Shown: positions 1 to 3,880, numbered from the stretch's first letter. The stretch: 12,329 nt of DNA from a virus (IMGVR_UViG_2563366903_000021); one strand, 5' to 3'. The notes: a model not told the origin generated them from the sequence alone. Made by a program: numbers and translations.

Positions 1-294
1 GTGGCGCACGTCTTCGGTGAACGCACTCTGGCCACACTGGAGCGTCTTCTGAGCCTGCTGTCGGCCTTTGAGGTCGTGGTATGGATGACGGATGGCTGGC
101 CGCTGTATGAATCACGCCTGAAGGGAAAGCTGCACGTTATCAGCAAGCGTTACACTCAGCGCATTGAGCGACATAATCTGAATCTGAGACAACATCTGGC
201 AAGGCTGGGACGGAAGTCACTGTCGTTCTCAAAATCGGTGGAGCTGCATGACAAGGTCATCGGGCATTATCTGAACATAAAACACTATCAGTAA
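1..294 (+). CDS. insB: IS1 transposase InsB, C-terminal portion (true start is upstream of the window; the GTG at 1 is only the frame entering the window)
   Basis: Translation ...[72 protein letters not shown] is the recognisable InsB C-terminus; stop TAA at 292-294 lies inside the IS1 right end. Confidence 0.9.
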
Positions 295-309
295 GTTGGA
301 GTCATTACC
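287..309. repeat. IS1 right terminal inverted repeat (IRR)
   Basis: atcagtaagttggagtcattacc, one mismatch to the canonical IS1 end ATCAATAAGTTGGAGTCATTACC (from memory). Confidence 0.8.
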
Positions 310-627: not shown

Positions 628-657
628 AATGTCGGGGCTTTTTGTTTGCACAACAGG
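628..657 (+). terminator. Possible intrinsic terminator
   Basis: Hairpin cctcggc/gtcgggg (7 bp with two G-U pairs, loop agaaat) followed by ctttttgttt. A weak sigma70-like promoter (TTGCTT 481-486, 17-bp spacer, TATGTT 504-509) lies upstream. Confidence 0.35.
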
Positions 658-720
658 TAAGAGCATTGAACCCGCAGACCTCGTGGAATTGGTGAAAGGT
701 GTGCGCAGTGCTCTTATCGT

Positions 721-847
721 TGTGGTGAAGCTCAATGGCGAGCTAGCAGACAGGCGACTGTGAAAATACTAGTCATGTAGCGGATCGCCGCGCGTATTGT
801 AATCGGCAGCGCACCGATGGGAGCTGGTTCGATTCCGGCCGCCACAA
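721..847 (+). other. Degenerate tRNA-like remnant (intact T-arm and acceptor 3' strand, no canonical anticodon arm)
   Basis: T-arm gctgg-TTCGATT-ccggc at 823-839 containing the GGTTCGATTCC T-loop motif. The 3' acceptor strand cgccaca (840-846) can pair with tgtggtg (721-727, 7/7 with one G-U) or tgtagcg (776-782, 6/7). A D-arm-like gctc-aatggc-gagc sits at 730-743. The only 5-bp anticodon-like stem (802-806/814-818) has loop cagcgca with no U33. Confidence 0.3.
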
Positions 848-966
848 TCCAAACTGAGCCGTAGCCTCTGGGTGTCCTGAATTCATCAGTGATAGTTACG
901 CTGCGGCCTTCTACATACGATTTTTGTGAAAAGCGGGTGGCAAGAGGCTGCGAAATTTTTAAATAC

Positions 967-1185
967 CTCACAATTCCACAGCTTGATGATTGTCTGGCTG
1001 CCGGAGAATTTGTTAAAAATTACATCGCGTGGTGAATCCCCCTCAGCGGCGGGGCATCTGGCAAAGTGTATGATCCAGCGAACATGCAAATTCAGTAGCC
1101 AGGCTGAATTTACCGGGAGGCACCTGGCACCATGCGACAGACAGAAATTAGGCTATACTTCAGCCCCTCTCCGGAGGGGCTTTTC
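967..1185 (+). repeat. Tandem paralogous module, copy A (promoter-like 5' block, conserved internal hairpin, intrinsic terminator); candidate small RNA or vestigial late-promoter/terminator unit
   Basis: Shares with copy B the blocks ctcacaattc, gattgtctggc...tttgttaaaaa, ggtgaatccccct[hairpin]ggggcat, accgggaggcacc(c/t)tg(g)caccatgc and an identical terminal hairpin cagcccctctccggaggggcttt. No reading frame is conserved between the copies. Confidence 0.6.
1163..1185 (+). terminator. Intrinsic terminator closing copy A
   Basis: gcccctc (1163-1169), loop tccg, gaggggc (1174-1180), then TTTT (1181-1184). Confidence 0.7.
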
Positions 1186-1374
1186 TGTGCAGGATGTGTC
1201 ACAGTTTCCTGAATTCTGAGTACTGTCCTGTTACTCAGGGTGCTATATTTTCTGACGTGATGAAAGTCTGCCGGAAGGCGGAACGTATCGGAAATGACCC
1301 AGTAGAGAAAACGTTGACTCAGATACCGATGCTGAGTTACCGGGAAACCGGCATCACATGACCGCTATCCTTCC

Positions 1375-1398
1375 AGGCTCGCTCCGGCGGGCCTTTTT
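1375..1398 (+). terminator. Intrinsic terminator between the two modules
   Basis: aggctcgc (1375-1382), loop tccg, gcgggcct (1387-1394), 8 bp with one G-U, followed by ttttt. Same tccg loop as the module terminators. Confidence 0.5.
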
Positions 1399-1435
1399 AC
1401 TGCAGAAAACAGTTTTCCCGTAAAATGCCACGTTA

Positions 1436-1668
1436 CTCACAATTCAGGCTGGCGATTATTGTCTGGCCAGCGGGAAGTTTGTTAAAAAAATATGGCATGG
1501 TGAATCCCCCTGTGCGGAGGGGCATATCAGCGACAGGTGTTTGGTCACACCCCTTATCCTTTCTGGTGCGGGTTCAGGTGCTGATACTGAACTCACCGGG
1601 AGGCACCCTGCACCATGCATGAACGGTACATAGCGCTACTCTCCAGCCCCTCTCCGGAGGGGCTTTCT
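1436..1668 (+). repeat. Tandem paralogous module, copy B
   Basis: See copy A. The internal hairpin is cccct-gtgcgg-agggg here versus cccc(c)-tcagcggc-gggg in A, so the stem is kept while the loop differs. Terminal hairpin is identical to A. Confidence 0.6.
1647..1668 (+). terminator. Intrinsic terminator closing copy B
   Basis: gcccctc (1647-1653), loop tccg, gaggggc (1658-1664), then tttcttgtt. Confidence 0.65.
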
Positions 1669-1706: not shown

Positions 1707-1906
1707 GGCAAGGAATAAACAACAAAACGTGAAGTGATCAATTTTCAGCTGGCGAATAATACCCGACAGTAATCACTCTGCGCAACTGTATGGTCTTTTT
1801 CGTATTGCGGGCTGTAGTCATCCTCCTGTTTCTGAACCCTTGTCCATGACTGACGTCAGCCCGCACCTTATCTTGATTGCATACACTATCCCTGCCGGGA
1901 GGAATA

Positions 1907-3880
1907 ATGGCATTTAAACACTATGACGTGGTCAGGGCATCATCGCCGTCAGACCTCGCAGGAAAACTGACGCAAAAACTGAAGGAAGGCTGGCAACCCT
2001 ATGGTAGTCCGATTATCTCAAACGCGGGTTATGGTGCTGAATTTATCCAGGCTATAGTCGCTGAAGGGGATATGACCTCTCCGGTAGTTTCACCGGGGGG
2101 AGATGGTACCCGGACTGTTGTTGTTGAACCAGAATATTACTTTGTCATTGCGCTGGCCGGACAGTCAAACGGCATGGCGTATGGTGAAGGTCTGCCGCTG
2201 CCGGAGACATATGACCGTCCGGACCCGCGTATTAAACAGCTGGCGCGTCGCAGTACGGTGACACCGGGTGGTGCGGCCTGTGCATATAACGACATCATTC
2301 CGGCGGACCACTGCCTGCATGATGTGCAGGATTTGAGCCGTTTTTCTCATCCGAAAGCCAGCGCAGAGCAGTATGGGTGTGTCGGACAGGGATTGCATAT
2401 TGCCAAAAAGCTGTTGCCCTTTATGCCGGAAAATGCGGGTATTTTGTTAGTGCCGTGCTGTCGTGGTGGCTCTGCGTTTACAGCCGGTGCTGACGGAACG
2501 TTCAGTGAAAGTTCAGGAGCGTCGGATAAATCTGAACGATGGGGCGTTGATAAGCCGTTGTATAAAGACCTGCTGACACGCACTCAGGCCGCGCTGAAGG
2601 CAAACCCCAAAAACATACTGCTTTGTGTTGTCTGGATGCAGGGCGAGTTTGATTTAAAACAGGGAGCGTACGCCAGTCAGCCCGCCATGTTTGATGCCAT
2701 GGTGGAAAAATACCGTTCTGACCTGGCGGGAGTATCCGGTCAGTGCGCTGGTGCTTCTCCTTCTCTGGTGCCCTGGATTTGTGGTGACACGACGTACTAC
2801 TGGAAGGAGACGTATTCAGCGCAATACGATGCCGTCTATGGCGCATACAAAACCAAAGCCGGTAAAAATATCTTCTTTGTGCCGTTTATGATGGATGACA
2901 ATGGTCAGAAAGTCGGGACCAATGAACCGTCAGAAGACCCGGATATTCCGGCTATCGGGTATTATGGTTCCGGTGGACGAACGGATGCGAAGAGCTGGAC
3001 AACATCCGATCGTAAAACCCACTTTGGTTCATGGGCGCGTCGCGGAATTATTTCCGACCGTCTGGCAACAGCCATTCTTCTGCATGTGGGCAGAGTGGCA
3101 GATTTTGTTTCCGGGAAAGTGACAAAAGCCGCGGTTTCTTCAGGCGGAGGCGTATCGCAACCAGCACAGGAGAGTGGCGATACTCAGCCTGAATCCGTTG
3201 TCCCGACAAAGATACAGTCAGTGCTGGCTTATGATGCGAATGCGGAAAATGCCGATCTGGCTTCGCAGGGCTGGACGCTGACAGATGTCAAAAACACGCT
3301 GGTCAGTGACAGTGGTTCAGGTAAAAAAGCCCTTCGTCTTGAAAAACCAGAAAATGGTCTTGCACAGAAAAAGACCTGGAAAGTATCGCACGCAATTGAT
3401 GCCGGTAAGGGGAAGGAGCTGTTCGATAACGGCGGTGAAATCACGCTGCGCTTTAAAATCCCCGATGATGTATCTCTCAATGCTTCTGCAAATCAATATT
3501 CTGCGGGTATTTACTGGCGCGGTAGTGGATGGCCGGGAGCGGAATCAGAGGAGGGTTATATTGCGGCCTTCTATCTGCAGACTGATAAAACAAACATCAA
3601 TGTGATGTATCATGCAAACACCACATCACAGCGGCTTGGTAGTTATGGTCCGTTCGATCACGACTGGCACACGCTGACTTTCCGCTTCCCGGGTGGTGGC
3701 TCGCTGAACGTCACGCCGGTGCTTGATAATGCAGCAGGAAAACCGTTTACGCTGACCAGATGGACGAATGCAGCCTTTGAGGCCAACGCGCTGGCAATTA
3801 CGGATATTACCGGAAATGCGGCAACTTACCCTGTGCTGATTGAAAGTCTTACTGTTGGTGTGAATGCCGTAGCAGCATAA
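1907..3880 (+). CDS. nanS-p: Prophage-encoded sialate O-acetylesterase, NanS-p family (SGNH/SASA esterase with C-terminal carbohydrate-binding-like region)
   Basis: 657-aa ORF starting at ATG 1907 (GGGAGG at 1897-1902); the ORF-track start at 1877 has no SD. N-terminus MAFKHYDVVRASSPSDLAGKL resembles the small N-terminal domain of EHEC prophage NanS-p proteins (DUF1737 by memory). GQSN esterase motif (FVIALAGQSNGMAYGE) is encoded at 2159-2170. Position just upstream of the lysis cassette matches where nanS-p morons sit in Stx and related lambdoid prophages. Confidence 0.85.
   Translation: MAFKHYDVVRASSPSDLAGKLTQKLKEGWQPYGSPIISNAGYGAEFIQAIVAEGDMTSPVVSPGGDGTRTVVVEPEYYFVIALAGQSNGMAYGEGLPLPETYDRPDPRIKQLARRSTVTPGGAACAYNDIIPADHCLHDVQDLSRFSHPKASAEQYGCVGQGLHIAKKLLPFMPENAGILLVPCCRGGSAFTAGADGTFSESSGASDKSERWGVDKPLYKDLLTRTQAALKANPKNILLCVVWMQGEFDLKQGAYASQPAMFDAMVEKYRSDLAGVSGQCAGASPSLVPWICGDTTYYWKETYSAQYDAVYGAYKTKAGKNIFFVPFMMDDNGQKVGTNEPSEDPDIPAIGYYGSGGRTDAKSWTTSDRKTHFGSWARRGIISDRLATAILLHVGRVADFVSGKVTKAAVSSGGGVSQPAQESGDTQPESVVPTKIQSVLAYDANAENADLASQGWTLTDVKNTLVSDSGSGKKALRLEKPENGLAQKKTWKVSHAIDAGKGKELFDNGGEITLRFKIPDDVSLNASANQYSAGIYWRGSGWPGAESEEGYIAAFYLQTDKTNINVMYHANTTSQRLGSYGPFDHDWHTLTFRFPGGGSLNVTPVLDNAAGKPFTLTRWTNAAFEANALAITDITGNAATYPVLIESLTVGVNAVAA

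Follow-up and report, generated by a model that had tools for sequence, protein, structure and literature searches.

Several lambdoid, P22-like and Shiga toxin (Stx) phages carry transfer RNA (tRNA) genes in the leader of the late operon, in the slot between the Q/pR'/tR' region and the lysis genes. These include the ileZ-argN-argO cluster of 933W, whose annotation places tRNA genes, among them a tRNA-Arg, in this slot, and the Asn/Leu and Asn/Thr genes of phages L and Sf6, which occupy the same position (PMC8022706). Here we analyse an element at positions 721-847 of a 12,329-nucleotide stretch of viral DNA (IMGVR_UViG_2563366903_000021), hereafter the window, which represents the late region of a lambdoid E. 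coli prophage. The element occupies this slot on the same strand as the late-leader tRNAs, as the initial annotation of the window had rightly proposed in calling it tRNA-related, and it shares with them a tRNA frame with a canonical acceptor, a T arm and G18G19; one of its relatives (locus L137) lies within such a tRNA array. What sets it apart is the fifth arm, a non-canonical anticodon loop (A33, C37), A8, the short D loop and usually the absence of CCA. Homology to ileZ, argN and argO was rejected: identity to these genes is 55-59%, a background level, as unrelated tRNAs are mutually 58-65% identical.

Features of tRNA are also found in RNAs that do not decode, such as the species 1 and 2 RNAs of T4 (rnaC, rnaD), the M3 RNA of phi80, the MALAT1 mascRNA and the tRNA-microRNA chimeras of the murine herpesvirus MHV68. 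These RNAs borrow tRNA features for release by RNase P and 3'-end enzymes and for stabilisation, and several of them are viral and without a known function. A sequence relation to the element is not expected, and we know of none with a fifth arm bearing a self-complementary loop. A self-complementary hexamer in a hairpin loop is shared with the kissing loop of the human immunodeficiency virus type 1 dimerisation initiation site, although the loop of the element has 20 nucleotides (nt), not 9, and its dimerisation is suggested by covariation alone. The hairpin that the lambda N leader forms between nutL and the N ribosome-binding site, which we take to be an RNase III site that relieves N autorepression, agrees with the members of the family found in N leaders (e.g., locus L009) in an identical nutL boxB, identical flanks and the same long basal stem, but has a different interior of ~100 nt without a T arm; the window copy lies in a late leader and has no long basal stem. 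Additional helical arms that leave the core are known from class II tRNAs (Leu, Ser, bacterial Tyr, Sec) and allo-tRNAs, partly from phages and metagenomes (PMC5389517). There the extra arm is the variable arm at positions 44-48 and reaches up to ~20 nt, whereas the element has a 4-nt variable loop and an arm of ~55 nt that leaves from position 26 and holds an internal loop and a large apical loop. OLE, ROOL and GOLLD are self-assembling bacterial and phage RNAs, the latter two phage-associated and often beside tRNAs (PMC12286853), but they measure 500-800 nt against ~130 nt for the element.

The acceptor stem, D arm and T arm of the element can be read directly from the window sequence, on the plus strand like all features given below. 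The 5' acceptor strand UGUGGUG (721-727), followed by A8 and A9 (728-729), pairs with CGCCACA (840-846) in 7 base pairs (bp), one of them G-U, and the discriminator A847 comes next; the sequence, the alignment to the tRNA model and covariation all place the 3' strand here. The initial annotation had offered two alternative upstream 7-mers for this pairing, of which 721-727 is supported by covariation while the other lies in a stretch that differs among homologues. Its D-arm-like hairpin at 730-743 (GCUC/AAUGGC/GAGC) is confirmed, with G18 and G19 retained and 100% pairing in the 32 aligned sequences described below; the D loop has 6 nt and lacks A21 and A20. The T arm GCUGG-UUCGAUU-CCGGC at 823-839 is exactly as described, is preceded by the variable loop GGGA (4 nt, 819-822), and has a loop that fits the consensus UUCRANY of the Rfam tRNA alignment; both the sequence and covariation support this part of the frame. 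CCA is not encoded in the window copy, where AUCC follows A847 so that the 3' end reads CACA-A-UCC. A canonical anticodon arm had been reported as missing, but this overlooked the hairpin AUCGG-CAGCGCA-CCGAU at 802-818, which has 5 bp and a 7-nt loop (C32 A33 G34 C35 G36 C37 A38) and stands in the canonical place, at canonical spacing from the T arm. The D stem and this anticodon-type hairpin are separated by ~57 nt, against the single nucleotide 26 of a canonical tRNA.

ARAGORN, run in its tRNA and transfer-messenger RNA (tmRNA) mode, found no genes in the window, but after in-silico deletion of 746-800 (or 746-801) it calls a tRNA-Arg(gcg) of 70-71 nt. Because of this call and the canonical anticodon-arm geometry at 802-818, we describe the element as a complete cloverleaf with an extra arm of ~55 nt at tRNA position 26. 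The Rfam tRNA model (RF00005) aligns from end to end, with model positions 1-71 falling exactly over 721-847 and passing over a 74-nt insert, at a score of 26.5 bits (E=0.002 in a 451-nt search) that exceeds chance but lies just below the gathering score of 29 bits. Measured against a canonical tRNA, the acceptor, T stem, T loop and D arm with G18 G19 are thus all present, and detection by a tRNA finder succeeds only once 746-800 is removed. The anticodon-type stem and the loop size fit, though U33, a purine at 37 and a single-nucleotide link at 26 are lacking. Of the core tertiary nucleotides of a canonical tRNA (U8, A14, R15-Y48, A21) and the 3' CCA, which E. coli tRNA genes encode, U8 is replaced by an A8 that is invariant in the family, A21 and CCA are absent, and the variable loop is GGGA.

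Membership in other described RNA classes was not supported. For tmRNA, there was no ARAGORN find and no match to the tmRNA clan at E<=10, and the G3-U70 pair is absent. A cmscan of 550-1000 against Rfam 15 (4,227 models, which include Y RNA/YrlA, viral tRNA-like structures and ribozymes) at E<=10 gave only the tRNA model and chance-level matches to microRNAs and small RNAs (sRNAs). At gathering thresholds, the whole window yielded only two copies of STnc100, outside the element. A known ribozyme or riboswitch inside the insert was rejected, as no Rfam model matched it. Rfam 15 lacks a model for the family, and an open-access full-text search found no publications that describe it; a preprint of 2026 that deals with the neighbouring prophage sRNAs (PasD/STnc100) speaks of 'tRNA-like sequences' in general terms only, as remnants of integration. 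A tRNA-like RNA carrying such an unprecedented fifth arm would appear to be new.

The extra arm (746-800) is delimited by the ARAGORN call on the deleted sequence and by covariation. It begins with helix X (746-749/797-800), which covaries among homologues (GCAG/CUGC, GUGU/ACAC, GGG/CCC, GAG/CUC), and continues through a conserved asymmetric internal loop (750-752 and 790-796, with GCGCGUA on the 3' side) into stem 2 (753-760/781-789), which also covaries and contains a bulged A784. The arm is closed by a 20-nt apical loop (761-780) with the self-complementary hexamer ACUAGU at 768-773, a candidate site for kissing dimerisation. We assembled 132 copies of the element with sufficient flank, 61 of them distinct, from IMG/VR, GenBank phages and bacterial genomes. 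A self-complementary hexamer occupies this position in 61 of the 61 distinct copies, in seven different sequences: ACTAGT (30), TCTAGA (12), TCGCGA (12), GCTAGC (3), TCTGGA (2), ACCGGT (1) and TCCGGA (1). It is 100% paired, with three types of outer pair (A-U, U-A, G-C) and four of inner pair (U-A, G-C, C-G, U-G), and for the type UCUGGA (17 copies) symmetry exists in RNA only, by way of a G-U pair. The hexamer covaries, yet its inner two nucleotides lie side by side, too close to pair inside a single hairpin; a loop-loop contact that would join two RNA molecules is the simplest reading.

Other explanations of the arm were tried. Pairing of the apical CUAG with a CUAG at the junction (743-746) was rejected, as 16 of the 61 cores are CGCG, CCGG or CUGG and the junction is constant. 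A pseudoknot between the GCGC of the anticodon-type loop and that of the internal loop showed no covariation, and its pairing is broken in L056 and in the CAUCGCA variants. The arm as a mobile insertion or intron was also rejected: a pattern scan of IMG/VR gave no arm-less allele with the same anticodon-type hairpin, and no bulge-helix-bulge motif was seen by eye.

Upstream of the cloverleaf, each cassette of the window type opens with an invariant single-stranded motif, GCACAACAGG (648-657), identified by its conservation across loci; its last two G form the base of a 13-bp helix, H1 (656-668/706-718). The inverted repeat noted earlier in this region is real and does pair with 706-716, although its upstream arm (taagagcattg) lies at 658-668, not 659-669, and it extends to the full H1. 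H1 has at least three fully compensated variants, namely GGAGAGAGUAUUU/AAGUACUCUCUUC in the Klebsiella type, GGUAAUGGCACUG/CAGUGCCAUUACC in L093 and GGUAAAUCAAUUUAC/GUGAGUUGGUUUAUC in the second cassette of L137, while the interior of the helix (669-705) varies among phages. A boxA reading of UGCUCUU(A/U) was rejected, as this strand is the 3' half of H1 and co-varies with its partner strand (UACUCUC in the Klebsiella type, UGCCAUU in L093). The motif GCACAACAGG is kept in the window, lambda, Skatevirus, Pantoea phage PdC23, Salmonella phage gmqsjt-1 and Klebsiella, and stands twice in tandem in L137.

The element was located at no fewer than 120 loci by a pattern scan of IMG/VR. The block 706-847 is ~90% identical in HK75, other Escherichia lambdoid phages and dozens of Salmonella Skatevirus genomes, and 77%, 76% and 71.5% identical in PdC23, gmqsjt-1 and the P22-like BIS08P22. 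About 3% of complete E. coli genomes have the element (158-175 of 5,426), never under an annotated feature, and a scan of species-representative genomes added Klebsiella pneumoniae, Enterobacter intestinihominis and Superficieibacter electus. The carriers of the family are phages of Enterobacteriaceae and relatives; the IMG/VR pattern scans and the representative-genome scan for more distant relatives gave only close members (>=70% identity). One locus (L134), on a 9.7-kb contig of a metagenome-assembled genome assigned to Cellvibrionaceae, has an HK75-type late leader with the element. The flanks examined closely resemble those of the Escherichia phages. It is probably a mis-binned enterobacterial phage contig and not an occurrence outside Enterobacterales. 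Public annotation over the element is sparse and varied: RefSeq E. coli genomes have no feature there, and GenBank phage records show 'hypothetical protein', 'polyubiquitin-A' or a 58-nt 'tRNA-Ser', the last covering the 3' part only (Salmonella phage vB_CECAV_048, L002 2587-2644).

To measure covariation, we used an alignment of 32 distinct sequences (A5). It was found that 95.3% of cells were paired, against 32-47% when partners were slid by 1-3 columns, and that 16 pairs had changed on both sides, against 3-6 in the slid controls; the observed covariation score was reached by 0 of 500 shuffles. Compensatory changes occur in all helices but the D stem. The T stem is 99.4% paired with three of its five pairs altered on both sides, and the acceptor has a compensatory variant, GUGUGACG/CGUCACAC, in L133. 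The anticodon-type stem is invariant in A5, and other copies show AUCAG/CUGAU, AUAGG/CCUAU and AUUGG/CCAAU. Its loop reads CAGCGCA in 46 of the distinct copies, CAUCGCA in 8, UAGCGCA in 5 and CUGCGCA in 1, so that variation is confined to positions 32, 33 and 34, and the resulting GCG and UCG are both arginine anticodons. Nearly invariant are the internal loop (A-Y-A opposite GCGCGUA), A8 A9, the D loop and the GGRA variable loop. Conservation of this kind appears to exceed what a handle for RNase P would need. The initial annotation had ranked a functional tRNA-like RNA below a decayed tRNA, and the evidence gathered here favours the option it had ranked lower.

A covariance model built from A5 (R1), with the window sequence in its training set, found a sole match in the window, at 705-854 (159.8 bits, E=1.9e-41), and scored 148-162 bits at eight loci outside the training set. 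The tRNA frame, helix X and stem 2 with GCGCGUA, the apical hexamer and the hairpin AUCGG-NNNCGCA-CCGAU, which together define the family, are all present in the window. Elsewhere, R1 gave 41.7 bits for a tRNA-like RNA of a Hafnia phage, 27.6 for the Sf6 N leader and 24.4 for ileZ of 933W; in the lambda late leader, the sole lambda stretch searched, it found nothing.

The 61 distinct copies comprise 27 of the cassette type (GCACAACAGG plus H1), 24 on a long basal stem and 10 in other settings. The element follows Q and tR' in the late leaders of the window and HK75, while long-stem copies, including those of BIS08P22 and L009, lie between nutL and N. These N-leader copies stand on a basal stem of ~19 bp. 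At L009 the 5' flank, with boxB and the stretch up to and including GGCUUUGGGGUGUG, and the 3' flank, with CACACCACCAAAGCUAACUGACAGGAGAAUCCAGAUG, equal those of lambda, and the hairpin interior alone differs. An encoded CCA with a 9-bp acceptor (CACCACACC-A-CCA) could be read in the N-leader copies, but the reading was rejected, as lambda has the identical sequence in the basal stem of its N leader, where no tRNA is present; the 'CCA' is probably inherited stem sequence and not evidence of charging. The Skatevirus copy is antisense to its flanking genes, one of which encodes the major tail protein, and has a promoter-like site upstream on its own strand (TTGACA-17-TAGATT). The copy in PdC23 lies in the nin region, and that of L017 has a terminator hairpin directly after it. 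The occurrence of the unit in the late leader, the N leader, the Skatevirus tail region, the PdC23 nin region and the terminator-ended L017 indicates that it moves as a self-contained block.

In L137, the element is followed after 7 nt by a tRNA-Arg(UCU) and after a further 3 nt by a tRNA(CAU). The same locus (760-1480, minus strand) has two tandem cassettes, each opened by a hairpin, CACAACAGG and the H1 helix, the first with an HK629-type core and the second with the five-armed tRNA-like RNA. Late leaders may thus contain a repeated module for small RNAs. The late leader of lambda (L129, ~44,790-44,960) has H1, the linker and, compensated relative to UGUGGUG/CGCCACA, the closing stem UGUGCUG/CAGCACA, which surround a different interior of 66 nt. 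In HK629 (L127) and E212 (L128), GCACAACAGG, H1 and the 7-bp closing stem are kept around another interior of ~100 nt whose core fold is not exceptional; the flanks shared by these loci correspond to window positions 648-729 and 835-930. No Rfam model matched the late-leader interiors of lambda or HK629/E212. For a 646-850 query, ~150 additional E. coli genomes gave matches limited to its first 84 nt, which hold H1 and the 5' strand of the closing stem.

The N-leader hairpin between nutL and N is polymorphic in a similar way. A comparison of L173 (lambda 35,300-35,560, minus strand), L009, L130 (Sf6) and L131 (Hafnia phage) gave identical flanks and basal stem with four interiors: ~100 nt in lambda, ~190 nt with a T-arm-like hairpin in Sf6, the five-armed tRNA-like RNA, and a near-canonical tRNA(CCC), the last in the N-leader stem of Hafnia phage Pocitis76.

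On balance, we lean towards the view that ~648-848 is an intact gene for a structured non-coding RNA, shaped like a tRNA with five arms, which would be stable, excised from its leader, trans-acting and possibly dimeric. The D and T arms could meet in a tRNA-type elbow, and helix H1 stands ahead of the whole frame. From its position just past tR' in the late-operon leader, the window copy would be made only when Q-modified polymerase reads through tR'. Host tRNA-processing enzymes would then use the tRNA frame to cut the RNA from the leader, with RNase P acting at 720/721 and trimming of the 3' end after A847; for the N-leader copies, additional cleavage of the long basal stem by RNase III is proposed. 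Excision by these enzymes is the most economical mechanism we can propose, because of the tRNA frame, membership of a tRNA array in L137 and a slot shared with genuine phage tRNAs. The product would be a stable small RNA. Its working parts would be those conserved surfaces for which a mere processing signal has no use: the anticodon-type loop, which is invariant, the GCGCGUA/AUAG internal loop and the apical loop with its self-complementary hexamer. Apical loops probably pair two molecules into a dimer, and the RNA probably acts in trans on something that recognises tRNA.

As to function, we favour a mimic of tRNA-Arg that would act on a tRNA-binding factor. A fully specified version, in which a self-dimerising mimic is released by host tRNA processing and acts in trans on a host factor that recognises tRNA, is offered tentatively. 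Such an RNA might, for example, soak up or block a defence nuclease directed at tRNA-Arg, or hijack a tRNA enzyme. The variable palindromic loop would give dimers a lineage-specific specificity, and in lambda the N-leader hairpin and the stem of the late leader would represent cargoes, alternative or relic, that the same processing cassettes carry.

A number of observations weigh against an excised, trans-acting RNA. The D stem is near-invariant and never covaries, and the family is tight (>=70% identity), so that part of the covariation traces back to a modest number of changes inherited in common. When 721-847 is folded as a single sequence, it shows no unusual stability (z = -0.95), and the minimum-energy structure retains the acceptor stem only. 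CCA is missing, and A8, A33, C37 and the short D loop depart from tRNA rules, so that recognition by RNase P and 3'-end enzymes is no more than plausible. Lambda, HK629/E212 and Sf6 have the same closing stems with quite different interiors, and these swapped interiors fit the view that the stem, rather than its cargo, matters in cis. For the window copy itself, bases 1-294 encode the C-terminal part of the IS1 transposase (PF03400, E=6e-51; profile residues 35-131), and from base 310 on the sequence has 99%+ identity to other E. coli prophages. Because the IS1 junction maps inside a Q-like antiterminator gene of 204 amino acids that is intact in SCU-104 (phrog_753, E=3e-68), Q is disrupted by IS1 (window 1-309), and the prophage probably cannot activate its late operon. 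A search of the plus strand from 300 to 1900 gave no sigma-70-like promoter. With Q broken and no such promoter found, the window copy, although intact, may be hardly transcribed or silent.

The strongest alternative, which we consider unlikely but worth serious attention, is a purely cis-acting leader element. Here the tRNA shape would be a handle for RNase P, joined by RNase III in the N leaders, and the cut would part the promoter-proximal leader, with its terminator hairpin or antitermination-bound nut RNA, from the downstream mRNA, leaving the excised RNA as a functionless by-product. Leaders of antiterminated operons do hold most copies (the 27 cassette-type and 24 long-basal-stem copies among the 61), the N-leader copies share the stem and flanks of the lambda hairpin, and lambda, Sf6 and HK629 retain the stems and swap the interior. 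However, RNase P needs only the acceptor/T-arm minihelix, which leaves the anticodon-type loop, the GCGCGUA/AUAG loop and the covarying palindrome unexplained. Nor does the Skatevirus copy head an operon, being antisense to its neighbours and equipped with its own promoter-like site, and copies of the L017 type run directly into a terminator. It is because of this orientation, these terminator-flanked copies and the surfaces beyond the minihelix that we take the excised RNA, and not the cut, to be the probable point of the element.

A working, chargeable tRNA-Arg with an added arm (GCG, or UCG in some copies) seems doubtful. Under this heading, the tRNA might serve as a replacement that escapes, through its altered anticodon loop, a host nuclease directed at tRNA-Arg, and phage tRNAs with anticodon-loop changes that evade nucleases are a published idea (PMC10264068). 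The ARAGORN reading after removal of the arm agrees with such a tRNA, as does the restriction of loop changes to 32 (C/U), 33 (A, once U) and 34 (G/U), which gives arginine anticodons alone. The tRNA-Arg genes of the Shiga toxin phage 933W lie in the same slot, and the element heads the L137 array. Against these points, A33 is found in 60 of the 61 distinct copies where U33 is near-universal in tRNAs, C37 stands in place of a purine and A8 in place of U8, the Rfam score is sub-threshold, and the window type lacks CCA. The 6-nt D loop has neither A21 nor A20, the latter a major identity element for E. coli arginyl-tRNA synthetase, and a core arm of 55 nt is unprecedented in decoding tRNAs. Taken with A33, C37, A8 and the short D loop, this large arm makes a real decoding tRNA unlikely.

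The initial annotation had preferred a decayed phage tRNA or a tRNA-derived att fragment, which we now regard as very improbable. The empty ARAGORN result, the low Rfam score and the known use of this slot for phage tRNA genes speak for decay, but ~90% identity across unrelated phage backbones and compensatory substitutions in nearly every helix, with pairing far above the slid controls, do not fit it, and similarity to the 933W tRNAs is at background. For an att origin, the 50-nt 3' half matches 175 of the 5,426 E. coli genomes and never lies under an annotated tRNA, even at E<=10, and the element sits mid-prophage between Q and the lysis genes with no integrase or att nearby.

Action at the level of DNA, with the palindrome and repeats as a protein-binding or recombination site or a 79-amino-acid minus-strand open reading frame (732-971) as a coding gene, is likewise highly improbable: six of the seven hexamer types are perfect DNA palindromes and some phage records annotate a protein there, but UCUGGA owes its symmetry to a G-U pair that forms only in RNA, the helices around the hexamer show covariation at the RNA level, G-U intermediates included, and the coding reading was rejected, as 1-nt insertions and deletions among homologues would shift the frame of any reading frame and the minus-strand one has no Pfam match.

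The surroundings of the cassette are those of a late-operon leader. A tR'-type intrinsic terminator, an 8-bp hairpin (617-638) with a U tract, covers 617-647, and the homologous position in HK75 is annotated Tr'; a hairpin also precedes the conserved GCACAACAGG in other cassette-type copies (the arrangement of hairpin plus CAACAGG). Downstream, the stretch 860-952 is conserved with lambda and HK629 and folds into a stable branched hairpin (-36.6 kcal/mol, z = -2.6), which ends in a terminator-like GC stem and T run (937-960). Two tandem STnc100 sRNA genes follow at 997-1190 and 1466-1675 (139.9 and 129.9 bits; gathering score 47), between the element and an esterase gene, and both end in the identical terminator hairpin AGCCCCTCTCCGGAGGGGCT; STnc100 is related to the PasD sRNAs (2026 preprint). 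The esterase gene (SASA/DUF1737, 1877-3880) is followed by holin, lysozyme and head genes.

Although few genetic systems have been studied as thoroughly as the lambdoid phages, this block of ~200 nt is unannotated or mis-annotated in the records examined. If the RNA is indeed made and processed, a five-armed tRNA would be a new architecture and would join the known tRNA-like RNAs, and it would be a natural counterpart of the engineered 'tRNA scaffold'. It would also offer a small, tractable candidate for a homodimer made of RNA only. The leaders of antiterminated phage operons would then appear, as these loci suggest, as cassettes for the delivery of small RNAs, and the tops of the N-leader and late-leader hairpins of lambda, which are polymorphic, would deserve a fresh look.

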